Virus record (IMG/VR): IMGVR_UViG_3300025168_000033 | Coordinates: 102,533 to 166,532 of that record | Strand: one strand, 5' to 3' | DNA: 64,000 bases | From: a virus | Part shown: positions 6,962 through 62,519 of the stretch, one piece after another | How positions within the stretch are numbered: the stretch's first letter is position 1 | Layout: each line of letters starts with the position of its first letter | Program-made: the position numbers and the translations under genes | Notes under the pieces: generated by a model | The model's database searches: none | Seen by the model: the letters and a program-made list of their open reading frames with translations, nothing else | Told to the model about the DNA's origin: nothing

Positions 6962-9900
6962 CTATTTAGATATGTTTGGTTGACTGCTTAATGTAGTAGT
7001 CAAAGAATCATTCAAATCATTTATAGTATTTTGGAAAGATTTTACTGGTGTATCAGTTACATCTAAATTATTCGATTTATACTTAGCAGTAACAGTGACA
7101 TCAAAAGAAAACCGTTCATCTAATCCATAAAAGACATCGATTCCAAGTGTTTTATTATATATCAATTGATCCAGTTTCGCATTAAGTTTACCACCAACTA
7201 ACCCAAGTTCATCAGTACCATCACCAAAGAAATCAGTCATTCTATATTGAAATACTAGTGGAATACTTAAGCTTTTAGTATTTCCAAAGCTTATTTTCTT
7301 TGTTGATTTTGAACTGCTACCAGCAACACGACCAAATTCATGATCTTGCATCTTAGGAAAGAAGTAAGCACCACAGCTACGACCACCTAATAAATATTGA
7401 TCATTGCTATCAAATCCAGATTTAACACCTCGATTTAATGTGGTATCATAAAATAATGCTGCCTGTTTATTACCATTTGTTTCGGCATTATCTAATCGAG
7501 ATAATATAGTATTTCTGAATTTTATAGGGAATGCTGCTTGCATCAAAAGTGTAGAATATCCAGTAGCAAGGCCAGAATCATATCCTATCTCTTTTGCATC
7601 TATAGCAAAAAACGGATGTAATTTATGAACACCTAAAAGTATATCATAATTTAATATACCAGTTGTAGAATGTTCACTAAGTGCTTCATCTATAGTAGCT
7701 AATGTTGTAGAAGTACCAACCAATGGAGAAATCCAAAAGTTCGAACTACTTCTATCAAATGGCGTAGTTCCAACAGGATAATCAAATTTATCTTCTAAAT
7801 CATCTACGCTTGAAGCTGGTAATGTAGTAAAATTACCATTGGCGTCATTCGCTTTAGGCACACCTGTATCATCAATATCACTATATAGCGACGAAGTTCC
7901 GTCTATATTTGAATATCTAAAATTTATGAATTGTCCTAATGATTGAGAAGACTGAAATGGTAATTCAGACCTAACTGTAGCAAATGGATTAGGTGCTCCA
8001 GTAGTATTAGTAAGTTTCTCAGAAATATTTAATTTATCAATAAGCATAGGAACAACATCATATCTATCCTCAACATTATATGCCGAGTCATTACCGTTAT
8101 ATTTGTAATTTCCTTGTAGTGGATCAATAGTATTCCAAGATGCAATAGGTTTTCTATTAACAGGACCGAAGATTCTAGAATAAAGTTCCATTTCTGAAGC
8201 TCTTTCATTTTCAATAGTTAAGAAATATGTCTTGGTAATAATTACGCCTTTACTTATGCTTAATGCGGCTACTTCATCTTTATAGTTAGGCGCATTAATA
8301 TATAGTTTTCCATTATTTTCTGCACGATATTCATTACCACTTTCATCGATTATTCTAATATTAAGCTGGCCTTTAGTTCTTTCAATTAAATCTCTAACTA
8401 CTTGCAATTCGTCCTGAATTGACTTGATTTTTTCAAACATTGAAATAGGTGTTTGCTGTTCATCAACAAAACCAGAAGCTAATTCCAATCCGCTATGAGC
8501 AAAATACCGTCCGTTAGATTCAGTACTTTCTGATACGTGCCTATAAACACCTTTGGTTTCTAGATCCTCTTGTAATTCAATTCGTACACTTTCTTTAGTA
8601 GCTTCTTCTGTAATATCATCAACACTTATTTGTGATTCTAATTCATCAGGGAAATCTACACGAATAATTTCAGTATATGCAGATTTTGTAGGATTTGCAG
8701 GATATCCTGCTTCAGAAACAGATTTAATTCTAAATTCTATTCCTTCACCTCCTTTAATAGCAAGGTCTAATTGATTAATATTTACCGAATCTGAATTTTC
8801 ATTTTCTTCTACAACCCAACTTACCAATCCGGTATTAGGATCTGTAACTCTTTTTCTAACTGGAGTTTTAATTTCATTCCAAGTAGAAAATGAACCACGT
8901 CTTGTAGAGCCATCAGCCTCAGTAAATTCAATTTGATCAGCTGAATTAGCACCACCATCTTTTGTTACATATCTATATTGAATTTCAAATTGTACTACTT
9001 CCTGTGGTGTAGTTTGATTTGAAAATTTAGCATCAGGCAATGGCCAGAATCCACGTAATCTATATTTTGGTGTTGTACCCGTAATATTAGATTCAATTGT
9101 TTTTGTATTTATATCTCTTACTGAAGATGCATACAATTTTGAACGTGAACTTCTTTGACCTATAAGAGCATTTAATTCATTTCTATCCGCATCTCTTTCA
9201 ACTTTAGATTTATATTTTTTATTTCCTAGCTGAGATTGCTTTTTATTAATTGCAATATCAAATTGTGAAATTTCATTTTTAAGTTTTACCTTTTCAGAAT
9301 GTAATTTCTTGATTTCATCAATTATTGGCGTATCTGTAATGTGTCTATTAATTTGTGTTACTTTAAAATCTGTAGCTGTAATTAATGGTGAACTAGGTAT
9401 TTCTGCTAAAATAGAAGGCACTGTTCCTTCTTTAGCCATTGAAAAAAGAAATGCACCAAAATCTACAACATCATCTTTATAATACTGATCTAGTGTTCTT
9501 GTAGTATTTCCATCATCAATAGTTAAATCATTTGAAAAATATCCAACACCAGGCGACCAGTTAGTTGCTTTAATTTCTGAATCTGGATCGATTGGCTTTA
9601 TAAACATTACTGTTCTTTCATTAAAACCTACATTAACTTCTACAAGACTTGCAGCATTATTATCACCAAAGAAAATAAGATTATCATTTCCAATAGATAT
9701 TTTTTCAAATCCTTCAAGTAATTCAACAGAAACTGTAGAAGTTCCTTCGTCTATTGAAGTAATTTTATATCGTGTATTTCTTGATTCAGAATTAATTACA
9801 ATAGAATCATTGATTTTCAATTGTTGTGTATTAATATATCTTGAATCTCTATCTGAATATGTTAATTTATCTAGCTTAAATTTTAAATCACGTTTAGTAA

Positions 9901-10594
9901 TTTCCTCACCATTTTCCGTAACTGTTATAGGATTATCTAGAATTCTAATTACACTAAAAGTACCGTAAAATTTAAGGTCTCTTGGCGGAAGATTAATTAC
10001 ATCTTGATCTAAAAAGAATAATATTCCTTCCTGAAGTAATGAACTTAAAAATGTATCGTAATCCAGGTTTGATTTTCCTTGAAAATTCTTTTCAAAAAAA
10101 TCTAATTTTTTATCTGTATCTAATGTTAAAATATATCTTGCGGTTTCTACTCTTTCAGTATTTGATTTAATTTGAACACCAAAATCGAATGAAACAAAAA
10201 GTAAAGGATTTAAAAATGATTCAAAAAACCAATTTGCTCTTGATCCAAAAGATGTCGGCGTAGAAATAGTTTTAATATCATTAGCTTCCTTTTTTAATGA
10301 ATCCTGTAGAACTTTTCTAAAAGATCCGTCAGCTAATTGTAATACTGAATTTGAACTACCTAACCCTGAAAGAGACTCAACATTTTGATCAAGTCTTTCA
10401 ATTTGTGATTGTAATTTTCCAAATGATGGAATTACAACTTTTTTAATTACATTATTTTCATCAAGTATATCAATTTCTACAGTATCAGATTTAGATGAAA
10501 CTACATCAGATAACTTGTTAACTATTTCTAACCCGTTTTTCTGAACTTTAATAAGATCAGAAAGTAAAGTAGATAATGAATTTTTAGTAGGCAT
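6962..10594 (-). CDS. Large virion structural protein with coiled coils and an FN3-like segment, 1210 aa
   Basis: Heptad segments; VVQFEIQYRY...IEFRIKSVSEAG resembles FN3 strands; structural context. Confidence 0.5.
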   Translation of the reverse strand: MPTKNSLSTLLSDLIKVQKNGLEIVNKLSDVVSSKSDTVEIDILDENNVIKKVVIPSFGKLQSQIERLDQNVESLSGLGSSNSVLQLADGSFRKVLQDSLKKEANDIKTISTPTSFGSRANWFFESFLNPLLFVSFDFGVQIKSNTERVETARYILTLDTDKKLDFFEKNFQGKSNLDYDTFLSSLLQEGILFFLDQDVINLPPRDLKFYGTFSVIRILDNPITVTENGEEITKRDLKFKLDKLTYSDRDSRYINTQQLKINDSIVINSESRNTRYKITSIDEGTSTVSVELLEGFEKISIGNDNLIFFGDNNAASLVEVNVGFNERTVMFIKPIDPDSEIKATNWSPGVGYFSNDLTIDDGNTTRTLDQYYKDDVVDFGAFLFSMAKEGTVPSILAEIPSSPLITATDFKVTQINRHITDTPIIDEIKKLHSEKVKLKNEISQFDIAINKKQSQLGNKKYKSKVERDADRNELNALIGQRSSRSKLYASSVRDINTKTIESNITGTTPKYRLRGFWPLPDAKFSNQTTPQEVVQFEIQYRYVTKDGGANSADQIEFTEADGSTRRGSFSTWNEIKTPVRKRVTDPNTGLVSWVVEENENSDSVNINQLDLAIKGGEGIEFRIKSVSEAGYPANPTKSAYTEIIRVDFPDELESQISVDDITEEATKESVRIELQEDLETKGVYRHVSESTESNGRYFAHSGLELASGFVDEQQTPISMFEKIKSIQDELQVVRDLIERTKGQLNIRIIDESGNEYRAENNGKLYINAPNYKDEVAALSISKGVIITKTYFLTIENERASEMELYSRIFGPVNRKPIASWNTIDPLQGNYKYNGNDSAYNVEDRYDVVPMLIDKLNISEKLTNTTGAPNPFATVRSELPFQSSQSLGQFINFRYSNIDGTSSLYSDIDDTGVPKANDANGNFTTLPASSVDDLEDKFDYPVGTTPFDRSSSNFWISPLVGTSTTLATIDEALSEHSTTGILNYDILLGVHKLHPFFAIDAKEIGYDSGLATGYSTLLMQAAFPIKFRNTILSRLDNAETNGNKQAALFYDTTLNRGVKSGFDSNDQYLLGGRSCGAYFFPKMQDHEFGRVAGSSSKSTKKISFGNTKSLSIPLVFQYRMTDFFGDGTDELGLVGGKLNAKLDQLIYNKTLGIDVFYGLDERFSFDVTVTAKYKSNNLDVTDTPVKSFQNTINDLNDSLTTTLSSQPNISK

Positions 10595-26172: not shown

Positions 26173-27500
26173 TATGGATAAACTGTTTTAGGCGATACAT
26201 CTGAATCAGTATCATTATTTAAACTAGGTCCAGAAGTATTATTTCCACTAGCTGTAGTAGTATCATTATTTAAACTAACACCTTCGGTATTATTTCCATC
26301 TGCTCGATCAGTTCTATTTGCTAAGCTAGCACCTTCAGTATTATTTCCACCTGCTCGATCAGTTCTATTTGCTAAACTTCCGCTTTCACTATTTGAATTT
26401 TTAGGACCATTTGGACCTCTTAATTTATTTGTAATGTTATTTAATGATACAGATTCACCACCGATAGCATCTAATACCATACTAGCAACACCAATTTTTG
26501 CAGCATCAACCTTTTCGCCTATAAATCCACGAGCTAAACTTGTTGCAATTCCAGTAGCTTTATCTGCAATAAAATCACCTAGATTTGAATCATCAGGCTT
26601 ATCAAATGCAGCTATATCCAATCCACCGGTAACAATATCAGCAATTTTTTCATTACCAAATATCATATAAACATTTTCTTCTACGATGCTTTTTGTATTG
26701 ATTTTTATTGATTGAATACCGGTTGTCATTGCATCGCCTTTATTATTTAAAGACGCAAATATACCTGATCCACTTTCTAAATCAATAGTACATTTATGTA
26801 ATGAAAATAGCATTCGAGTCGTATTTTCCATAGATGATTGTTTATCATTAGGTCCTGTAATTTTAGACCAGATTCCTTTAGCGGCCTTTCCAAAGTCAGT
26901 GCCCTTTACATCATTAAATTTAGATTTTACATTTTTACCTGTAAATTCACCAAAAGGATTTTTAGGGTACGGATCACCAACAAATGTAGAATTGAAAACA
27001 TATACACCCATATTGAATTTACGTAAATTATGAGGAACTACTTCTCTAATATTTTCAAAATCAAAACAAGCCTTACGATATAAATCTATAAGTCCAGTCA
27101 TTTTAAATGTGACATCATCGAGACATTCAATTGTAATATCTTTTGATACTACTGGATTTGAAAAATCTCGTTTCCAGATTTCATCTAATCCTTCGATAGC
27201 TTGGAAATACCAAGACATATCATTACTTATAAACTTAAGAACTTCAACAAAATGCTTTAAATATGCAGCTCGTTCTAATTCATTAATTGACAATAAATAT
27301 GAATGTGCAGTATTTTTATTTGTTTCATCTATAGTTAATAAAGGACTTGTATTAAAATCAAACATCAAACGAAATGCAATTATTGATGGATCCTGAGTAG
27401 TCATAAAAGTATTAGTCTCAAAAAATAAATTAGTTTTTTGAAACCTCGACATTTCAGGGTCCTTATATTTATTTAAAAGAAAATCGTCAATTAATGCCAT
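26172..27500 (-). CDS. Tail tube-like / baseplate-tube junction protein with repetitive C-terminus
   Basis: ITIECLDDVTFKMTGLIDLYRKACFD resembles gp19-like tube folds; located between hub and spike genes. Confidence 0.5.
   Translation of the reverse strand: MALIDDFLLNKYKDPEMSRFQKTNLFFETNTFMTTQDPSIIAFRLMFDFNTSPLLTIDETNKNTAHSYLLSINELERAAYLKHFVEVLKFISNDMSWYFQAIEGLDEIWKRDFSNPVVSKDITIECLDDVTFKMTGLIDLYRKACFDFENIREVVPHNLRKFNMGVYVFNSTFVGDPYPKNPFGEFTGKNVKSKFNDVKGTDFGKAAKGIWSKITGPNDKQSSMENTTRMLFSLHKCTIDLESGSGIFASLNNKGDAMTTGIQSIKINTKSIVEENVYMIFGNEKIADIVTGGLDIAAFDKPDDSNLGDFIADKATGIATSLARGFIGEKVDAAKIGVASMVLDAIGGESVSLNNITNKLRGPNGPKNSNSESGSLANRTDRAGGNNTEGASLANRTDRADGNNTEGVSLNNDTTTASGNNTSGPSLNNDTDSDVSPKTVYP
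26205..26380. repeat. 51-bp (17-aa) tandem repeat, about 3.4 units
   Basis: SLANRTDRAGGNNTEGA / SLANRTDRADGNNTEGV / SLNNDTTTASGNNTSGP / SLNNDT. Confidence 0.9.
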
Positions 27501-27514
27501 AAAAGTTTAATATT

Positions 27515-29005
27515 TTAGTAGTCTATGTTTTCAACTGGAATTGGCCATTCACGACGTAAACAATTAAGTTTCATTCCTATACCAGCTCCTTTATATATGT
27601 ATTCAATTGAATCTATTACATAATATCCACTTAGAAATTCATTCTTTGTTTTTGCTCCTGGAGTTTCTGTTGAATCTTCAGTTTCGTTATCTTTAGTTTC
27701 TTCCTCGCCAAGCTCTTCGTCTCGTTTTTCATTTAATCTTTTAGTATTAGGATCACCATTATAAATGCTAATAGGAATTCTTTGATACCTATAAAGATTA
27801 AAATTCATATTTGGCATTTCAACGGTCAATGCCATTTTATTAATTTCTTTTAGATTTTGATAATTCAAAATCTGTGCAAAAATATAATTTTCATGCATAT
27901 TATATCCATCAAGTTGTGTTCCGCCTGATACTTGTTTACCAAGATATTTATACTTTACTTGAGATTCATAAAATGTTTCATCCGCACGACCCTTTTGTAA
28001 TATTAAATCTTTTTCTGCTCCTTCAGTTGTTAACGGATCTACAAAAAATTCATTCCATTCTCTAACAAAATCATCATAATATTGACAGTATCTTTTATAG
28101 CCATTCATTCTCCAGGTCTTTCCAGAAATATTAGTCAAACCGTAATTATTAATGTACATGTCTGAATCACGTTTAGCTTCTTCATTTGATAAAAATAAAG
28201 TTGTTAATGAACTAGCAGGTTCTCCTGTCACAGTTCCGTCCCTATTAGGATTTTGTCCTATTGAAATAGTCGCATCTTCAAATAAATCTTCTGTACTAAA
28301 TTGCTTATTAATATTTACAAAACATAAATAATAATACGGATCGATATATGACGTCCAAAAACTATCATCATCTTTATATGCCTGTAATGTCAAATCATTT
28401 ATAAACTTTAAATTTGTATCATACGGTCTAATTCTCACCATTGGATCTAATGTTTCAGATTCATTTGATGCATATCCAAGACCTAGATTATCAGCCACTA
28501 AATTAATTTGAGCAAATGTAGATGCTTCTTCAAATGCTTCACAATCCTCAGCATGAAGATTTGGTACCTTCATTGAACATTCTAAAGTAAATAAATTAGG
28601 ATTGCTAGAAACAAATTTTATTGAAATTATATCAAAGTCTATTCTTATTTCTTTAAATACTTCATCATCAGGCGGTTTAATAAATACGGATACAATATCA
28701 CCATCTTTAGGATAATCTCTATCACCAAATCTATTACTAACATCACTAATTACTAGTTTTGCACTAGGCAAAAATCCACTAATACTAATTGAAAAAAATG
28801 AAATTTCTTCCTGTTTTAATTGTGTAGAATTAATTTGAATCAATGGAATAACTGTCCCAGAAATCTGCGAAGCTTTATTCATGGTCGGGCTAGAATTTGC
28901 ATTTCCGCTACCTTCATCAGGACTTTCAAAATCCTCAATCGACATAGGATCTAATGCTATCGTAGGATCCGTTAATGGTAATATTTGTCTATCTGTATTT
29001 GCCAT
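27515..29005 (-). CDS. Baseplate hub protein (gp27/GpD-like)
   Basis: C-terminal FLSGYYVIDSIEYIY...LNCLRREW; position between gp53-like and spike genes. Confidence 0.65.
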   Translation of the reverse strand: MANTDRQILPLTDPTIALDPMSIEDFESPDEGSGNANSSPTMNKASQISGTVIPLIQINSTQLKQEEISFFSISISGFLPSAKLVISDVSNRFGDRDYPKDGDIVSVFIKPPDDEVFKEIRIDFDIISIKFVSSNPNLFTLECSMKVPNLHAEDCEAFEEASTFAQINLVADNLGLGYASNESETLDPMVRIRPYDTNLKFINDLTLQAYKDDDSFWTSYIDPYYYLCFVNINKQFSTEDLFEDATISIGQNPNRDGTVTGEPASSLTTLFLSNEEAKRDSDMYINNYGLTNISGKTWRMNGYKRYCQYYDDFVREWNEFFVDPLTTEGAEKDLILQKGRADETFYESQVKYKYLGKQVSGGTQLDGYNMHENYIFAQILNYQNLKEINKMALTVEMPNMNFNLYRYQRIPISIYNGDPNTKRLNEKRDEELGEEETKDNETEDSTETPGAKTKNEFLSGYYVIDSIEYIYKGAGIGMKLNCLRREWPIPVENIDY

Positions 29006-50715: not shown

Positions 50716-52041
50716 TTATATATCGCGACCATTTTCAAAAACATGTTTTAATACTGGAAATCTTAAGGATTCTTTACCTTGTTTGTTGACAGTATATTCG
50801 AAGAATTGAATAGTACAGGTCTTTCCTACAATTAAAGAATTATCTTTATAGAATGCTTGTCTTTGTTTCATAGATAAACCAGAGCCAACATCAACAAGAT
50901 TTCCTTTATGTTCTATTACTAGATTAGATACCATTTCTTCTTCAACCTCGGTAGATATTTTAGATCCATCTGGTTGTGGAATATATTTGATGTATCTTAC
51001 ATTTCCAGGAACAGTATCAATAATAACATATTCATCATCCATCATTTCCTTGACCTTAAGCAGATCTTTAGATCTTTTACCTTTGTAAGTAGTATCTTTA
51101 CGAACCATGAATCCTTCCCATTTCTTAGTTCTAGATTCATCTAACCAAGAATTAAAAATGTTCATGTCTGTTACTTGTTCTTGTTGTAGAACTTCAACAG
51201 TATTTGAATCTTTTAATATTGAACATTTTTCAGTTAGATTAATTAATCTTTCAGATAATAATGTTGTAGAAGATTCATTATCAAAATCCGTTTGAGTAAT
51301 CATATCAAATATCTTGAATTTTGGATTTTCGATAGTATGATTTTTCCTTCTGATTTCTGACATAACACCGTTAAAGTTATCTGTGCCATCTGGATTAATT
51401 AAACAGATTTCACCGTCGAAAACCGTATTAGGTGAATTTAATAATTTAATTTCATCAAGAACTTTTTGAATTGTATCAAAAGATTTACCTGATCGAGATA
51501 ATGCAATTGGTGTATTGTTAGGACCTGTAAAAATCAAACATCTTACACCATCAAGTTTCCTAGATGCAAACCATGTTTCTTTTTCAAAATCAACATATTC
51601 AGGATAGTAATCAACAGCTAGAGCTACATTAAATGATGGAACGATATCACCGAAGATTTTGTTAATAGTAGTACTTGATACACGAATCTTTAAATTGTTA
51701 TCGATCAATCCGTATATTAATTCTTCGTATTCCTTGTTTTGTTCGATATATCCAAGAACAGCGGCTATTGCAGAATGACCAGTTAAATCACGATTATTAA
51801 GGGCATCTAGTAAATCGAAGATTGAATCGAATTGAAATGTTGGTTGTAATTTGCTAGCCATTTTTCTAGCAGTTTTTTCATGAACACCATATTTTTTGTA
51901 TGGTGACATTGCATATAGAAATGCTTTCTTAATAAATTCATTATCAACATAATCGTTAAGAATTTGTTTCTTATCGTTATTTGAATTTGTTGATTTTAAT
52001 CGTGTGACCATGTCGGCCATAGTTCTAAATTGTTCAGTCAT
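50716..52041 (-). CDS. ATP-dependent DNA ligase
   Basis: KLDGVR, VFDGEI, IFDM, EGFMVR, LLKVKE, SLRFP. Start moved from 52065 to 52041 because the upstream ATG lies in the conserved leader. Confidence 0.9.
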   Translation of the reverse strand: MTEQFRTMADMVTRLKSTNSNNDKKQILNDYVDNEFIKKAFLYAMSPYKKYGVHEKTARKMASKLQPTFQFDSIFDLLDALNNRDLTGHSAIAAVLGYIEQNKEYEELIYGLIDNNLKIRVSSTTINKIFGDIVPSFNVALAVDYYPEYVDFEKETWFASRKLDGVRCLIFTGPNNTPIALSRSGKSFDTIQKVLDEIKLLNSPNTVFDGEICLINPDGTDNFNGVMSEIRRKNHTIENPKFKIFDMITQTDFDNESSTTLLSERLINLTEKCSILKDSNTVEVLQQEQVTDMNIFNSWLDESRTKKWEGFMVRKDTTYKGKRSKDLLKVKEMMDDEYVIIDTVPGNVRYIKYIPQPDGSKISTEVEEEMVSNLVIEHKGNLVDVGSGLSMKQRQAFYKDNSLIVGKTCTIQFFEYTVNKQGKESLRFPVLKHVFENGRDI

Positions 52042-52066
52042 AATGTGCGTGTTTAAAGTTGTCATT

Positions 52067-55442: not shown

Positions 55443-56084
55443 TTACAGATTTATGATTAGTTTGTTTGGATTAGGATTAATGTATAGTTCAGGATCGTGA
55501 GACACATATTGAATTCTTGCAATATCTTTACAATGCTTATCTCTAGCAAATCCTGATTCGGTTTCAAATAATTCTGCAACCTTTATTTCAACATCCTTGT
55601 AGGTTTCTGTTGTTGCATTAGTTTGTATAAAGACCTTAAGACCTTGTCCGCTAGGAGTAATAAATGCAGCAGTCACATAAGGTAATTGTGTGCATCTATA
55701 CTTTAAGGTTTCTGGCTGTCTTACATTATCAAGATCCAAACAAATCAAGCCATTGTAGGATTCTAGACCTTTCTTGGATCGATGATTGAATATTCCTGTA
55801 GGAGTAAAAACCGGTAGTCGATCTTTAATAGGCGATTTTGAAGGATTTTCATGAATACGAACCTCGTTGATTTTAGTTTCATATTTGTCAGATTTAATTT
55901 CATCTAGAACATCCGTAAGGCGGCATGTTTCAACCGGTTTTGTAGATCTAAGTGATTTAAATCGAGTAACTTCAAGTTCATGAGGTTTAGCACCTTCGAT
56001 TTGATTGGTTCTAAGAGATTTAAAAAATTGATTTGATGCAGTAGCACCATGTTGTAATTCTAATTCGTTTTGTGAAGTTTCCAT
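55443..56084 (-). CDS. BT4734/VirE N-terminal-like domain protein
   Basis: KDRLPVFTPTGIF, YNGLICLDLD, FITPSGQGLK, DKHCKDIARIQYVSHDPELYIN. Confidence 0.8.
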   Translation of the reverse strand: METSQNELELQHGATASNQFFKSLRTNQIEGAKPHELEVTRFKSLRSTKPVETCRLTDVLDEIKSDKYETKINEVRIHENPSKSPIKDRLPVFTPTGIFNHRSKKGLESYNGLICLDLDNVRQPETLKYRCTQLPYVTAAFITPSGQGLKVFIQTNATTETYKDVEIKVAELFETESGFARDKHCKDIARIQYVSHDPELYINPNPNKLIINL

Positions 56085-56108
56085 GTGTGTGTATTTAAAG
56101 GGGTTATC

Positions 56109-57751: not shown

Positions 57752-58132
57752 TTATGATTTTTTAAATGGATTGTTAAATGTCGAAGTTCTAAAAAAGATG
57801 TGATCGTTATATTTCGTATATTCATTATTCGCAGCATCGGGTTCTTTCAGGGGTTCTTTCAGGGGCTCTTTTAAATCGAGGCGTTTATCGACCCAGTCGG
57901 AAAGCTCTTCCGAGTTTAAAGGTTCTAGAGGTGGCTGGCTATTAAGTCCTTGATTCTCTGAAAAGAATGCCGCAATTTCGCGAGTAAAGTCGACTACCTC
58001 TTCGCTAGCCAGCCTAAGTGTAAATATTTGCGGAGAATTCTCATTTACAAATGTAATGACCATTTTGCCGTCTACAGCCGTAAAGGTTATAGTAACTTCG
58101 TCGTCAGTAATTAATCGTTTTTCTATTTTCAT
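57752..58132 (-). CDS. Hypothetical protein with LKEP x3 repeat
   Basis: 126 aa ORF. Confidence 0.55.
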   Translation of the reverse strand: MKIEKRLITDDEVTITFTAVDGKMVITFVNENSPQIFTLRLASEEVVDFTREIAAFFSENQGLNSQPPLEPLNSEELSDWVDKRLDLKEPLKEPLKEPDAANNEYTKYNDHIFFRTSTFNNPFKKS

Positions 58133-58396
58133 TGTTTAAAAGTTGTTAGGTTAAAAAGGGTCAGGAAAGAGTAAAAATTTTTTCCTGAAATTTTTTTATT
58201 TTGGCAATTATAGCTTTTACCCTGGCTATTTGAAAATGCATTTTACTCGAAAGGCCTCGAAAATCGTAATTTTTTCAGGGAACCTATAGGCCGCTAGCCA
58301 TATTTGACTTTTCGCACGCGTTAACGAGGCGGTCCGTATCAGGGGTGGCTTTTATGTCTATGCGCATGTCTTAGCATGTGTGATCGTGTGTACATA

Positions 58397-58465
58397 TAAA
58401 GAGAACCAGCTAGCCACACACAGCATCATTGCCAGTTCTCATACACACATTACTTAATTTCTTAT
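58397..58465 (-). ncRNA. Candidate small RNA 1 (AUGUGUGU + hairpin with GUGUGU loop + U-tract)
   Basis: Directly behind class II promoter 58470..58499; stem GAGAACTGGC/GCTGGTTCTC; covaries with the copy at 60044..60100. Confidence 0.7.
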
Positions 58466-58469
58466 AGTT

Positions 58470-58499
58470 ATTATATTCGAAATGTGAGCGAATGTTTCA
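58470..58499 (-). promoter_or_regulatory. Class II promoter (drives small RNA 1)
   Basis: TGAAAC ATTCGCTCACATTTC GAATATAAT. Confidence 0.75.
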
Positions 58500-58880
58500 C
58501 TTTTCAAATTCGATATTACCGACAAAGTCCGAGTACATACAACACCAACGTCCCATGAATTCGCCTTTCGGCTTTATGAGCTTGTCGGTTTTCATATCGT
58601 ACCACTTAACTTTTCCTGATTCCATTAGATTACGAGTTAAGCGATGTTCTGCCTTTTCACGTTTTTCGCTATCGAAATATTCATTGAGGCAGTCCTCTAT
58701 AATTTCTTGTTGTATGTCTTCTCTAATAGATGATTCGAGCCATGCCATGTCTTTACGACTTAGTTCTGATATAGCTAAAGGAACCGAACCTTGATGAGTG
58801 TAACCTTTCCATTTGAATATGAAATAAATTGCATCTTCTGGCTTAATTCGATTCGAGTAATTTAGTGATTTATGTGTCAT
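58497..58880 (-). CDS. Hypothetical early protein
   Basis: 127 aa ORF behind a class I promoter. Confidence 0.6.
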   Translation of the reverse strand: MTHKSLNYSNRIKPEDAIYFIFKWKGYTHQGSVPLAISELSRKDMAWLESSIREDIQQEIIEDCLNEYFDSEKREKAEHRLTRNLMESGKVKWYDMKTDKLIKPKGEFMGRWCCMYSDFVGNIEFEK

Positions 58881-58885
58881 AGTCT

Positions 58886-58954
58886 GTTATTAATTATTTA
58901 TAGTTAAATATAAACAAAAAAATCGACAGTAAAAAATCCTGTAGCACTTATTTT
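58886..58954 (-). promoter_or_regulatory. Class I promoter repeat, copy 3
   Basis: Same motif, upstream of ATG 58880. Confidence 0.8.
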
Positions 58955-59082
58955 AAAGGACTTCCAAAGACTATTAAAAAAAGAAATAGATCCAGGAATG
59001 CTGTTACAATTCCTACTACTACTCTATCTTCGAGATCGTATGATTTCGATACTAGAATTCTATTTACTATAAATGTTATCAT
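58948..59082 (-). CDS. Small membrane protein (44 aa)
   Basis: Hand-translated MITFIVNRILVSKSYDLEDRVVVGIVTAFLDLFLFLIVFGSPLK; leader AAACTCACACC-ATG. Confidence 0.5.
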   Translation of the reverse strand: MITFIVNRILVSKSYDLEDRVVVGIVTAFLDLFLFLIVFGSPLK

Positions 59083-59094
59083 GGTGTGAGTTTA

Positions 59095-59700
59095 AAAAAA
59101 TAGGACCTAGCACTACTCGGTTCCTGATGTTAATGATCTGGTTTAGTCCCAGCTAGCACACGGATAGAAAAATCCTTCATTAACTTTGCCTTATCGATTT
59201 GATCTGTTCGATACCAGATTAAGATATAGTTGTTCTACTCTCCTATCCACCTGCAGCGCAAGCAGGATACAATATTTAAGTGTTACGTCGTCGATGCTGG
59301 CACATCCACTAGGCAACCCCTTTCGGGATACATAAAACATTTCTGCCTTATGATTAGGCACTTCCAACTAATACCATAAGTGTTTGATGATTAGAGAATC
59401 ATCTTGTCCAGTTCTGTTTTTAGTTTGAACCTAGCATTTTACGTCTTATTAGGATAATCACTCAAATTCCTAACTTTATAAACAACCACATATAGCTAGC
59501 AGGCTATACTCTTTATTTATAATACTGATGGTTTTAGATTCCTGCAAGAACTGTGTTCCATCCATCCTCGTGTTCAACTGCTCCCCTTACAAGAAAGGTA
59601 CTGATCGAACGATGTTTTGCATATTTCACATTATAGTGCGACATCTATAATTTATCCTCCCTGCAACTCGGGAGTAAGATTTTCAAGATTTTAATGAACG
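59095..59700 (-). ncRNA. Large structured RNA, ROOL-like
   Basis: ~600 nt with no ORF in the track, own promoter, terminal U-tract and more than ten visible helices; segments resemble ROOL consensus as recalled. Confidence 0.7.
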
Positions 59701-59708
59701 TTATAGTT

Positions 59709-59738
59709 ATTATATTCAACTTCGGGTCGAATGTTTCA
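59709..59738 (-). promoter_or_regulatory. Class II promoter (drives ROOL-like RNA)
   Basis: TGAAAC ATTCGACCCGAAGTT GAATATAAT. Confidence 0.75.
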
Positions 59739-59743
59739 TTTTG

Positions 59744-59817
59744 TCGGGTAGGCAGGATTCGAACTTACGATCTCCTCGTCCCAAACGAGGCGCGTTACCT
59801 GGCTACGCTACTACCCG
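59744..59817 (-). tRNA. tRNA-Pro (UGG)
   Basis: CGGGTAG/CTACCCG acceptor, CCTCG-TTTGGGA-CGAGG anticodon arm, TTCGAAT T-loop; T-stem has one A-C mismatch; CCA not encoded. Confidence 0.9.
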
Positions 59818-59831
59818 TATTAGTATTTTAA

Positions 59832-60019
59832 AACTCTCCAAGTCCCTTCAAGTAGGAATATCGGTTTAACAACTTCCCGTAGGTTAGGGAATACAGGAAT
59901 TTAACCTATACAATATCTAATTTCAAAGCTAACACTCTTGATAGTGTTGGTGATAGTTGGCGTTTCTTATTTCTAAGCGCTCACACTCATCACTTGCTTA
60001 TTCATTAGCTTGGAGAGTT
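59832..60019 (-). ncRNA. 188-nt structured RNA closed by an 11-bp terminal stem (6S-like or unknown)
   Basis: AACTCTCCAAG/CTTGGAGAGTT ends; internal CTTA-GAAA-TAAG, AACACT/AGTGTT and TTCCC/GGGAA hairpins. Confidence 0.6.
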
Positions 60020-60043
60020 CATTATGTTTTCGTTCGATGTTTT

Positions 60044-60100
60044 AAAAAGGATCGGCTAGGACACACTCCATGATTGCCGATCCTGTTAACACACATCTCA
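60044..60100 (-). ncRNA. Candidate small RNA 2 (paralogue of small RNA 1)
   Basis: ATGTGTGT, stem AGGATCGGC/GCCGATCCT, inner GGA-GTGTG-TCC, then TTTT. Confidence 0.7.
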
Positions 60101-60121
60101 TATTTTAAAGAACTATTGTCT

Positions 60122-60198
60122 TGGTGGTCTAAATGAGAATCGAACTCATTATCTTCAAGGCTATTCGCCAAGTGCTCTACCAATTGAGCTACAGACCC
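60122..60198 (-). tRNA. tRNA-like element with aberrant anticodon arm (identity undetermined)
   Basis: TAGCTCAATTGGTAGAGC D-arm, ATGAG-TTCGATT-CTCAT T-arm, GGTCTG/TAGACC acceptor and ACCA end; no canonical anticodon stem. Confidence 0.65.
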
Positions 60199-60219
60199 AT
60201 ATTGCTGTAGAATGGAGAA

Positions 60220-60453
60220 TTAAAAACCTAATCCTAAATCTATAGAATATGCTTTATTATAATCTCTTGTAACTTCTTTTCCGCTTTTATCAAATTCTAG
60301 TTTATCAATTACTGTTTTATTGTCAAGATCCATAAACAACATTGTAGTACCGTTATCGTGTTTTACAAGTTTAAGATCTTCTCCTGCTTTTTCGAATGAT
60401 TTAGTGTACTGTTCTAATTGTGTTAAATTCTTCATTTTGTTTGTTTTTTTCAT
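60220..60453 (-). CDS. Hypothetical early protein
   Basis: 77 aa ORF. Confidence 0.55.
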   Translation of the reverse strand: MKKTNKMKNLTQLEQYTKSFEKAGEDLKLVKHDNGTTMLFMDLDNKTVIDKLEFDKSGKEVTRDYNKAYSIDLGLGF

Positions 60454-60458
60454 GAGCT

Positions 60459-60776
60459 TTACTTAGCCATTTTTTTCATTTTCTTTTTAAAATCAGCCAT
60501 TTCTGATTTTGACCAGGACGAAGATCCGTTCATTGGATTATTAGGATTGTAAGTCGAGATCCGTACCTCTTCTTTTTGTTCTACCTTATGTTTCGTTCCA
60601 AAGAATCCGTAGATCGATTCGTTATAGGTTGATTTGTTCTTTGATCTTCGTGCAGTATACATTGCGTTATCAACAGCTCGATTTGCTTTGTCAGCGTTAG
60701 AACCTTTTGAGTTTTTGCATCTCATTGTACCTGTTTCGAAATTTGTTTCGTTTGATGATAGGAATGTGTCTTTCAT
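60459..60776 (-). CDS. Basic hypothetical early protein
   Basis: 105 aa ORF behind a class I promoter. Confidence 0.6.
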   Translation of the reverse strand: MKDTFLSSNETNFETGTMRCKNSKGSNADKANRAVDNAMYTARRSKNKSTYNESIYGFFGTKHKVEQKEEVRISTYNPNNPMNGSSSWSKSEMADFKKKMKKMAK

Positions 60777-60796
60777 GTGTGTTGTATTTAAGTTGT

Positions 60797-60879: not shown

Positions 60880-61074
60880 TTAATCGTCATTTCGAGTTTC
60901 AAATCGAAGTTCCGTTTGGTAATCTTGAAATTGTTCTTCAAGAACCATGAGACCTCCATCATAAAGATCTCTTTGACGAGTACTTGTGCAAGTATCACGT
61001 AATTCACAGATTTGATTGATTCGATTTTGAATTTCAATCAATTTGATTTTGAGGTTTTGTGCGTGTGTTGTCAT
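60880..61074 (-). CDS. Small helical early protein
   Basis: 64 aa ORF behind a class I promoter. Confidence 0.6.
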   Translation of the reverse strand: MTTHAQNLKIKLIEIQNRINQICELRDTCTSTRQRDLYDGGLMVLEEQFQDYQTELRFETRNDD

Positions 61075-61096
61075 AGTTAGCGTATTTAAAGTATAT

Positions 61097-61811: not shown

Positions 61812-62033
61812 TTAATGAGTTAGAGTCATTACAACTTTGCTTTGCAGATCTTTAAGATTGACATGTTCCATTTCTGCATAATGATCGATTATATAATCGA
61901 GCTTGATAGCTTTTGTATCATCATCACCAAGAAGATAGATCATGTCGTTATCGGTTACCTGATCTTCAGTAATCTCTGGAAGATCGTTAGTAGTTAAATA
62001 TTCGTTTACGTGTTGTAGATTAATGAGAATCAT
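61812..62033 (-). CDS. Hypothetical early protein
   Basis: 73 aa ORF behind a class I promoter. Confidence 0.55.
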   Translation of the reverse strand: MILINLQHVNEYLTTNDLPEITEDQVTDNDMIYLLGDDDTKAIKLDYIIDHYAEMEHVNLKDLQSKVVMTLTH

Positions 62034-62057
62034 ATGCGTGTCGTATTTATGTGTTAT

Positions 62058-62132: not shown

Positions 62133-62495
62133 TTATTTTCTCTTCCAGTTACCGTGTTCATCGATAAGTTCTAGTTTATCAAGAGCAGCATAACCAGCTT
62201 CAGTGATTCGGAATGTTCCGTAATCATTTGGATCGTAGTTACGATTTCTTTTACGATTTCCGTTTTCATCAACAATAAATTTCTTGTTTCTTTCTGTTAC
62301 CTGAAGAAATTCTTTGTTAGCAAGAGATCCAATAACTCCAGATCGAGTCTTACCTTTTAAGATTGCGGGAAGTATATCGAGCAGAGAGAAATCCCATATG
62401 CAACTTTCTCTTCCATCGTAAAAATCACTGTACGTGATATATTCGAGAATGATTAATTCTTTTTCGGTTAATGTGTAATCAGTGGTGTTTTTCAT
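62133..62495 (-). CDS. Winged-helix-like protein
   Basis: LTEKELIILEYI...SGVIGSLANKEFL...FRITEAGYAAL. Confidence 0.6.
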   Translation of the reverse strand: MKNTTDYTLTEKELIILEYITYSDFYDGRESCIWDFSLLDILPAILKGKTRSGVIGSLANKEFLQVTERNKKFIVDENGNRKRNRNYDPNDYGTFRITEAGYAALDKLELIDEHGNWKRK

Positions 62496-62519
62496 GCGTA
62501 GTGTGTATTTAAGGGTTAT

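Follow-up and report, generated by a model that had tools for sequence, protein, structure and literature searches.

In an uncultured marine jumbo phage, the longest non-coding stretch of the available record carries two small hairpins that are real, paralogous, selected and structured RNA elements outside any described family. The phage is represented by IMG/VR virus record IMGVR_UViG_3300025168_000033 (166.5 kb; 30.7% G+C), the last 64 kb of which (positions 102,533 to 166,532) form the window analysed here, and coordinates refer to this window unless another source is named. Both elements, termed copy 1 and copy 2, lie within positions 58133-60220 on the minus strand. We propose that they give rise to sibling small RNAs (sRNAs) whose 5' GU seed would pair with a CA leader common to a class of phage genes, thereby lowering the translation or the stability of the respective mRNAs. 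We assign this reading a probability of roughly 45%.

The common fold consists of a stem of 9-10 base pairs (bp; P1), an AAUNAU/UA internal loop, a 3-bp stem (P2) and an apical GUGUG loop, preceded by the GU seed. An earlier note, made by inspection of the DNA letters, had described both elements in these terms, and direct reading reproduced its sequences, coordinates and division into seed, stems and loops exactly. The parts are the following.

58397..58450, minus strand: copy 1, with seed AUGUGUGUAU at 58450-58441
58440-58431 with 58410-58401, minus strand: P1 of copy 1, including two G-U pairs
58430-58425 opposite 58412-58411, minus strand: internal loop of copy 1, AAUGAU opposite UA
58421-58416, minus strand: apical loop GUGUGU of copy 1, closed by P2 (GCU/GGC); the tail of the element is UUUAUAU
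60044..60096, minus strand: copy 2, with seed AUGUGUGU at 60096-60089 and linker UAAC
60084-60076 with 60056-60048, minus strand: P1 of copy 2
60066-60062, minus strand: apical loop GUGUG of copy 2, closed by P2 (GGA/UCC); the internal loop is AAUCAU/UA
60047-60044, minus strand: U tract UUUU of copy 2

For each copy, this fold is the minimum free energy (MFE) structure, with z-scores of -2.5 for copy 1 and -4.0 for copy 2 (-1.5 and -3.0, respectively, for the modelled transcripts), and the seed is unpaired in the short-form RNA. The stems had been said to differ between the copies and yet to pair in both. Indeed, all 22 cells of the 11 modelled pairs can pair, with three pairs differing on both sides and two on one side, while sliding the partner by 1-3 columns as a control reduced pairing to 19-50% of the cells. 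It should be noted that covariation support from two sequences is modest, as 70 of 500 shuffles reached the same level. Three G-U pairs in copy 1 are compatible with the minus strand only. A covariance model built from both copies (R1) scored them at 82 and 80 bits (E about 1e-17) and, when run across the whole 166.5-kb record, returned these two copies and zero others. The transcribed strand of the record contains nine (GU)3 runs, four of which fall within the 110 nucleotides (nt) of the two elements.

The opinion that no described family is involved was upheld. In the window, Rfam 15 at gathering thresholds gave two tRNA matches only, and in the region 57900-60300 nothing was found over either element on the minus strand with E-values of up to 10. 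Neither element belongs to the Rfam families that include C4 antisense RNA, 6S, tmRNA, GOLLD and ROOL. A shared peptide was also absent: the open reading frames (ORFs) across the elements have 10-26 codons, and their frames differ relative to the conserved GGCAAU core. A micro-ORF or small-protein gene was therefore rejected, since the copies would be read in different frames and the changes between them preserve pairing rather than codons. The internal loop was considered as a K-turn, C/D-box or 11-nt tetraloop-receptor and discarded, because the GA or CCUAAG/UAUGG bases are, by eye, not common to both copies.

Related loci, numbered with the prefix L, allowed us to gauge the constraint on the elements. 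At 4-fold sites, the lineage of L003 and L019 has diverged from this phage by 13%. Over this distance, copy 1 with its 5' leader (66 nt) is unchanged, and copy 2 (59 nt) has one change, the first U of the tail in L003; for the 125 nt of both elements, in which one base differs, the chance of seeing no more than two changes is about 4e-6. Copy 1 is identical in L003, L004, L005, L006 and L019. The hexamers of the promoter ahead of copy 1 are likewise kept, with 4 (L003) and 8 (L019) differences in the 18-nt spacer between them. In the more divergent L032, where the nearby ORF105 is 79% identical and 6 of 34 4-fold sites differ, copy 2 retains its seed, loops, P2 and 8 bp of P1 without change, and the linker, the outermost pair and the tail are altered. 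The start of the 188-nt RNA that follows copy 2 is 69% identical in L032, as opposed to an invariant copy 2 core. Since the cores are invariant while the spacer, the adjacent tRNA-like element and the 188-nt RNA change freely, the two elements are the most constrained part of the RNA island in which they are embedded. The seed is kept in L003, L019, L032 and L033.

The predicted partners of the seed are genes behind a class I cassette. Each cassette opens with a small hairpin (xxCAG-GAUUUUUUA-CUGxx), the stem of which varies in a pair-preserving manner, with a U run behind it, so that terminator, promoter and CA leader are combined in one unit of ~100 nt. The leader has the consensus UUAAAUACACACAC, then 0-4 nt, then AUG. 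Among the 205 minus-strand ORFs that were scored, 14 have the cassette, and in all seven of those located in the window, a CA tag lies no more than about 15 nt from the start. The earlier note had named complements to the elements at the starts 60776, 56084 and 52041. All three are present, and they head the following list.

60774..60783, minus strand: predicted target, leader and start of ORF105 (AACACACAUG), a 9-nt antisense match to copy 2
56082..56094, minus strand: predicted target, leader AUACACACACAUG of a BT4734-like gene (start 56084)
52039..52050, minus strand: predicted target, start of a DNA ligase gene (ACGCACAUUAUG; start 52041), 10 bp with one G-U to copy 1
62493..62512, minus strand: predicted target, leader AAAUACACACUACGCAUG (start 62495)
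62031..62050, minus strand: predicted target, leader AAAUACGACACGCAUAUG (start 62033)
61060..61076, minus strand: predicted target AUGACAACACACGCA (start 61074), with the CA tag just past the start
62121-62093, 60861-60833, 58947-58919 and others genome-wide, minus strand: examples of the hairpin that opens the cassette

The predicted pairing of the elements with start regions is strongly enriched for class I genes, as had been anticipated. Plain duplex energies with copies 1 and 2 averaged -17.7 and -17.0 for the cassette starts versus -12.3 and -11.6 for the others (p about 1e-6). The cofolding energy difference (ddG) also accounts for the cost of opening internal structure. With a cut-off of -6 or lower, it selected 14 of the 14 cassette starts, compared to 55 of 191 other starts for copy 1 and 44 of 191 for copy 2; the mean values were -11.1 and -10.2 versus -5.0 and -4.6 (p about 1e-9). 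Among the top-ranked cassette-leader interactions listed, pairing is through the 5' seed, and the hairpin remains folded. When random 62-mers of the transcribed strand were scored in the same way, at most 1 of 250 was equally selective and none of the 250 bound the cassettes as strongly.

It should be noted that these enrichment tests are circular in part, since it was the motif match by which the elements came to notice. The only comparison that is independent of the original observation is that with L033, which was found after the hypothesis. In this distant relative, the ORF105 homologue is 56% identical at the amino acid (aa) level, and three class I cassettes with CA leaders are present. 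Behind the ORF105 homologue and a tRNA-like element, L033 has AGUGUGUGUAUUUAG, followed by a hairpin (AACCUG...CGGGUU) whose 5' arm resembles P1 of copy 1. The L033 seed is antisense to UAAAUACACACAC over 13 nt, so that the match runs past the repeat into the UAAAU of the leader; from base composition, the chance of the five extra A/U matches was estimated at roughly 0.005. A duplex of 12 bp is formed with each of two leaders of L033 itself (ddG of -11.5 and -10.5), as compared to a ddG of -1.7 with a non-cassette gene. The seed variants of copy 1 (AUGUGUGUAU), copy 2 (AUGUGUGUU) and L033 (GUGUGUGUAUUUA) each match a different register of one leader.

Conservation in relatives, which the earlier note had treated as decisive for both the 5' GU stretch and the loops, was thus found for one of the two. 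Every relative that keeps the CA-leader cassette, L033 included, also keeps the 5' GU stretch; however, L033 is devoid of both loops, the apical GUGUG and the internal AAUNAU/UA. As L033 keeps the seed and neither loop, the conserved feature of the family is the seed and not the loops, and the loss of the loops weakens variants of the proposal that invoke a second binding site or a sponge. In L007 and L008, which are devoid of the cassette leader, the element was not found in the available DNA. L008 contains an sRNA-like sequence, AAUUAGGUUAGUUAUAAU, at L008:15943-16000, followed by a terminator hairpin with U6. It was considered as an analogous system, because 9 nt of it are complementary to the cassette leader of L008 (UAUAACCUAAUAACCC), which differs from the one described here; as the sequence ranks 3rd to 5th among 33 start regions, it is a lead rather than evidence.

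How the elements might act depends on the host, which is probably a marine member of the Bacteroidota. The relatives of the large structural proteins are all distant (aa identity of 37% or less) and belong to jumbo phages, namely those of Tenacibaculum, Chryseobacterium, Flavobacterium and Prevotella (Lak) as well as Sphingomonas phage PAU, and closer relatives come from marine metagenomes, in part Tara samples. The lineage is represented at the sites of ENA ERZ23491676, ERZ22156399 and ERZ3906614, SRR26182213, ERR3525244, and JGI Ga0114915 and 3300039186. In Bacteroidetes, initiation proceeds without Shine-Dalgarno pairing, and in Escherichia coli, both ribosome affinity and translation are increased by CA repeats close to the start codon (PMC4611024). 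The CA leader is therefore a plausible initiation element and, at the same time, a plausible point of attack.

Based on these considerations, the two elements would represent a lineage-specific family of phage small RNAs of ~55-70 nt, in which a single-stranded GU-repeat seed at the 5' end is followed by a stable bipartite hairpin and a short U tract. Copy 1 would be transcribed from its own TGAAAC-N18-TATAAT promoter, and copy 2 would be released from, or initiated within, the trailer of the tRNA-like element. The seed would pair with the CA-repeat stretch located at or just past the start codon of ~14 class I cassette genes. The resulting duplex of 8-13 bp over positions -15 to +3 would block 30S binding, since initiation without Shine-Dalgarno pairing in the probable Bacteroidota host relies on an open leader, and/or expose the mRNA to decay. 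As a result, the whole cassette regulon would be turned down together. The fold, its maintenance by selection, the promoter motif, the selective complementarity and the joint occurrence of seed and leader in several lineages were observed here, and from them we infer the discrete RNA species, the action in trans, and the direction and timing of the effect. A more far-reaching version is that the siblings serve as a master anti-leader that switches off or times the class of ~14 genes, as the RNA counterpart of T4 RegB in a host without Shine-Dalgarno initiation or Hfq. We put this version forward tentatively, and with less confidence than pairing by the seed as such.

The signals that could produce the two RNAs differ. 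The earlier note had placed copy 1 directly behind a class II promoter with no ORF; the promoter is there, no ORF of at least 30 aa follows, and a 27-aa ORF (58367..58284) does. The relevant features are the following.

58470..58499, minus strand: class II promoter of copy 1, with TGAAAC at 58499-58494, an 18-nt spacer and TATAAT at 58475-58470
60102..60131, minus strand: TAGACC-18-TAAAAT, a weak sigma-70-like site within the trailer that follows the tRNA-like element
60122..60197, minus strand: tRNA-like element, called by ARAGORN as tRNA-Ile(AAU) with an aberrant anticodon arm

The TGAAAC of the copy 1 promoter overlaps the TGA stop codon of ORF127. Transcription would start near 58463, leaving a leader of 12-13 nt ahead of the seed. 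On the minus strand, TGAAAC-N16-20-TATAAT has 14 matches, one of which is probably within a gene. Class II promoters frequently lie only 7-8 nt upstream of an ATG (e.g. at G000 9830 and 13523, minus strand), which suggests that class II mRNAs may be leaderless or nearly so, and a second motif, TGAAAAGGTTAGTAT(AATATA), is seen after three class II promoters. That class I promoters are early and class II promoters are middle promoters is an assumption of the earlier note. Outside the window (G000 26992-27612, minus strand), a phage gene specifies a sigma-70-family protein that has regions 2 and 4 and is probably responsible for one of the two classes.

Copy 2 is placed 26 nt behind the tRNA-like element, which scores 32.8 bits against a threshold of 29 and could possibly be a processing handle for its release. 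From the sigma-70-like site in the trailer, transcription would begin at or near the copy 2 seed. The trailer, which is unchanged in L032, contains an AAAATAT placed 3-4 nt ahead of the GU run, and L033 has this AAAATAT at the same spacing. The tRNA-like element itself has a compensatory T-stem change in L003 and 73% identity in L032, and L033 has a different tRNA-like element at the equivalent position. Further tRNA-like genes flank RNA islands in relatives (L008:9243-9335, 9620-9770 and 10395-10465; L033:1655-1727). They have good acceptor and T arms and aberrant or greatly enlarged middles, and are not called by ARAGORN. The motif GTTCTTTAAAATA recurs beside these genes and is also found at position 60112 of the window.

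Several observations weigh against the proposed pairing of small RNAs with leaders. The complementarity consists of the very dinucleotide repeat that prompted the finding. A 15-nt deletion has removed the CA leader from the ORF127 cassette (start 58880), and the leader is hence dispensable for at least one gene; compared to L003:3056-3076, the missing nucleotides are AACTTAAATAACGCA, and only ATGACACAT is retained at the start (58886-58880). The U tract of copy 1 (UUUAUAU) is poor. If transcription reads through copy 1, a conserved GUACACAC located 7 nt past the hairpin can sequester the seed: it forms the 8-bp helix P0 with GUGUGUAU, and the free energy is -23.5 kcal/mol with P0 versus -14.8 kcal/mol without it. 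Moreover, homology extends past copy 1 into a conserved region of 130 nt that includes the 27-aa ORF, and copy 1 may for this reason be a 5' leader instead of a free sRNA. The two loops that are missing from L033 are kept between the paralogues while the stems differ (5 of 30 unpaired versus 10 of 24 stem columns changed; Fisher p = 0.066), which pairing by the seed leaves unexplained. Lastly, the record is estimated to be 59% complete, so that the analysis covers only 59% of the genome.

Of the alternatives, the one that survives best is that the elements are modules of the island acting in cis, either as terminators or as processing or stabilising hairpins, which bound the ORF105-ORF77-tRNA-like and the ORF127 units; the GU stretches would then be incidental or nuclease determinants. 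Both elements are indeed found 3' to a class I unit, and copy 2 was picked up in a terminator scan with a 9-bp G+C-rich stem, a 35-nt hairpin of -15.3 kcal/mol and UUUUU. In addition, a plain terminator takes this place behind the ORF127 homologue of L007, and L008 has another structured element of ~95 nt with AUUUUA between its tRNA-like element and the 188-nt RNA. However, copy 2 is atypical among the terminators of this phage, which are ordinarily simple perfect hairpins with loops of 3-12 nt and U5-7, and copy 1, located downstream of a promoter and ending in UUUAUAU, does not qualify as a terminator. Copy 2 cannot terminate transcription fully, because the 188-nt RNA and tRNA-Pro downstream of it have no obvious promoter of their own. 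Termination also leaves unexplained why the GU stretch is invariant across four lineages and why the L033 seed matches its leaders over 12-13 nt. We therefore regard this explanation as unlikely.

We consider it somewhat less probable again that the elements are binding sites for a protein or for RNA polymerase, such as operators or decoys for a UG-repeat-binding protein or cis-acting antitermination signals resembling HK022 put or lambda nut. Such sites would account for the retention of loops in paralogues with different stems, but this contrast is weak (p = 0.066), and L033 keeps the seed and not the loops. The invariance of the whole of copy 2, stems included, at 18% neutral divergence and the position of copy 1, about 13 nt from the presumed transcription start and upstream of a strong terminator (58188-58161), are compatible with such a role, and two dispersed structured copies near promoters are the pattern of put and nut. 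On the other hand, proteins of the RRM, Hfq or ProQ type were not found in the 166 kb, and the elements have zero similarity to any Rfam model.

An intramolecular switch, in which the elements are 5' leaders acting in cis and the GU stretch pairs with a downstream CA block through P0 to control read-through or translation, is an improbable alternative. The block directly follows copy 1.

58375..58393, minus strand: CA block GUACACACGAUCACACAUG, invariant through 58379 in relatives

P0 belongs to the MFE fold of the extended copy 1 RNA, to which it adds -8.7 kcal/mol, and the invariance of the CA block in relatives also speaks for a switch. The parts under control would be the 27-aa ORF and a G+C-rich block for copy 1 (plus ORF62 in relatives), and the 188-nt RNA and tRNA-Pro for copy 2. 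The same leader precedes the 62-aa ORF of L003. However, the P0 equivalent of copy 2 is weaker (5 bp, GAUGU with ACAUC) and in another register, and the flanks differ as well, so that P0 is not a conserved helix. Furthermore, copy 2 is followed by RNA genes and not by an ORF, ORF62 is missing here and in L019 in spite of the element being kept, and the G+C-rich codons of the 27-aa ORF (MRIDIKATPDTDRLVNACEKSNMASGL) seem atypical for a phage with 31% G+C.

The remaining possibility, a recent duplication without function or a DNA-level site for recombination or protein binding whose match to the leaders is a low-complexity coincidence, would suit the two copies in a narrow lineage and the simple nature of CA/GT repeats, but it is very improbable given the strong purifying selection relative to 4-fold sites and neighbouring non-coding DNA, the compensatory stem changes, the strand-specific G-U pairs and the retention of the seed with an extended match in L033. 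Three specific origins were considered and rejected. Ends of an IS200/IS605-type element, i.e. same-strand hairpins around a 1.65-kb segment, were discarded because ORF127 has no above-threshold Pfam match, an HUH motif was not seen in it by eye, and the insertion or deletion relative to L003 is not bounded by the hairpins. Derivation from an inverted class I leader was discarded because the resemblance ends past the 9-13 nt of the seed. Homology of the sequences flanking the two copies is unconvincing, as it amounts to ~50% identity in A+T-rich sequence only.

Returning to the pairing of sibling small RNAs with CA leaders, the closest known systems are c4 and the bacterial sibling sRNAs for the mechanism, and T4 RegB for the outcome. 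The c4 RNA of phages P1 and P7 is a small structured RNA with exposed segments that pair with the initiation region and block icd/ant (PMC12197685, PMC8198154). Like c4 (Rfam C4, RF01695), the elements described here are predicted to pair with initiation regions of phage mRNAs that are made elsewhere in the genome. c4 is cut from a longer precursor by RNase P, which would parallel the location of copy 2 behind a tRNA-like element. In contrast, neither element matches the Rfam C4 model, and c4 controls one operon in a temperate immunity circuit, whereas the present case concerns ~14 dispersed predicted targets with one leader in a jumbo phage; the phage DNA seen gave no sign of lysogeny.

The sibling sRNAs OmrA/OmrB, RybB and Qrr1-4 combine a 5' seed with a terminator hairpin and depend on Hfq. 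The likeness lies in a conserved unpaired seed positioned at the 5' end or close to it, a hairpin and U tract on the 3' side, paralogues that keep the seed while the body diverges, and a multi-target regulon addressed through a short motif in start regions. Unlike for these sRNAs, genes for Hfq, ProQ or RRM proteins were not found in the 166 kb of phage DNA, and to our knowledge Bacteroidota have no Hfq. The targets also differ in origin, as the motif has here been spread by a duplicated promoter-leader cassette, whereas the targets of the OmrA/OmrB type are independently evolved sites.

In T4, RegB cleaves the Shine-Dalgarno sequences of early genes at GGAG (PMC3014915). The outcome proposed here resembles that of RegB and RegA, in that many early phage mRNAs would be inactivated together via a short motif in the initiation region. 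However, RegB and RegA are proteins, while an RNA is proposed as the effector here, and it would recognise a CA repeat within a leader that has no Shine-Dalgarno sequence. An origin next to tRNAs has a precedent in 3'ETS-leuZ, an sRNA that derives from a tRNA spacer or trailer and is a sponge for other sRNAs. Copy 2 and its counterparts in L003, L032 and L033 similarly adjoin a tRNA-like structure and are candidates for release by tRNA-processing enzymes, but copy 1 differs from this sponge in that it lacks a tRNA-like neighbour and has a promoter to itself. HK022 put and lambda nut are antitermination RNAs that act in cis on RNA polymerase. The two dispersed, promoter-proximal structured elements with differing stems and conserved unpaired bases, in a presumed early region of the phage, recall them; however, sequence similarity is absent, and a put- or nut-like function leaves the antisense match to the leaders unexplained.

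Most of the known regulatory RNAs of phages come from temperate enterobacterial phages, in which a given RNA acts on one or a few genes. If the proposal is correct, an RNA that acts in trans and, via a common leader, governs all genes of one temporal or promoter class in a lytic jumbo phage would represent a new regulatory logic. It would also provide a first handle on post-transcriptional control in Bacteroidota-type phages, the hosts of which use neither Shine-Dalgarno sequences nor Hfq. For a find from metagenomes it is unusually testable, as the seed, the target motif and three natural seed variants in different registers are defined. Should one of the alternatives hold, the elements would be ordinary terminators or leader hairpins, and the finding a minor one.

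The minus strand carries 206 of the 214 crude ORFs of the record. Relatives of the locus were reached via neighbouring proteins and one pattern scan of metagenomes. In public phage genomes, tRNA-Pro alone was matched, and a search for related loci with a structural protein gave zero relatives. Exact-pattern scans of viral contigs gave zero matches for the class I and class II promoters and for the hairpin core. In metagenome contigs, the hairpin-core pattern had six matches, of which L019 is the sole true relative and the other five are chance matches in coding DNA. An 18-mer of the L033 seed had only chance matches in viral contigs, inside a large ORF.

The RNA island, in the direction of transcription, is composed of the following units.

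60197-60122, minus strand: tRNA-like element, followed by copy 2
60019-59832, minus strand: 188-nt RNA
59817-59743, minus strand: tRNA-Pro
behind tRNA-Pro, minus strand: class II promoter and ~600-nt RNA, then ORF44, then the class I cassette with ORF127
behind ORF127, minus strand: class II promoter and copy 1, then a conserved G+C-rich block, then the strong terminator 58188-58161

The block behind copy 1 (58245-58378, minus strand) has about 50% G+C in a phage of 31% G+C, and it changes by 2-4% as compared to about 9% in the neighbouring gene. It was considered as a structured RNA and rejected, as with a z-score of +1.3 it is no more stable than shuffles. The 62-aa ORF of the L003 lineage (L003:3726-3914) sits between this block and the terminator, an insertion that neither the present phage nor L019 has.

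The ~600-nt RNA with its class II promoter and ORF44 (59095-59740, minus strand) is missing from L003 (2979-3010) and L005, where tRNA-Pro is directly followed by the class I cassette of ORF127. As these close relatives do without it, the ~600-nt RNA is a movable module.

The 188-nt RNA is closed by an 11-bp helix (AACUCUCCAAG/CUUGGAGAGUU), and folding it together with copy 2 gave a z-score of -5.1. It had zero matches in Rfam and zero exact matches in 185,579 prokaryote genomes. Counterparts are present at L008:9433-9615, L018:12509-12690, L032:749-840 and in L011, and the RNA is thus conserved well past this lineage. The kept blocks are the ends, GCUAAUGRAURAGCAA and ACACUWYCAAGAGUGUUAGCUUUGAA, with a variable middle. 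Its occurrences include a Tara phage contig (a relative with 66% aa identity) and an unrelated IMG/VR contig, in which it lies beside an ORF that by eye appears to be of the P-loop (terminase) type.

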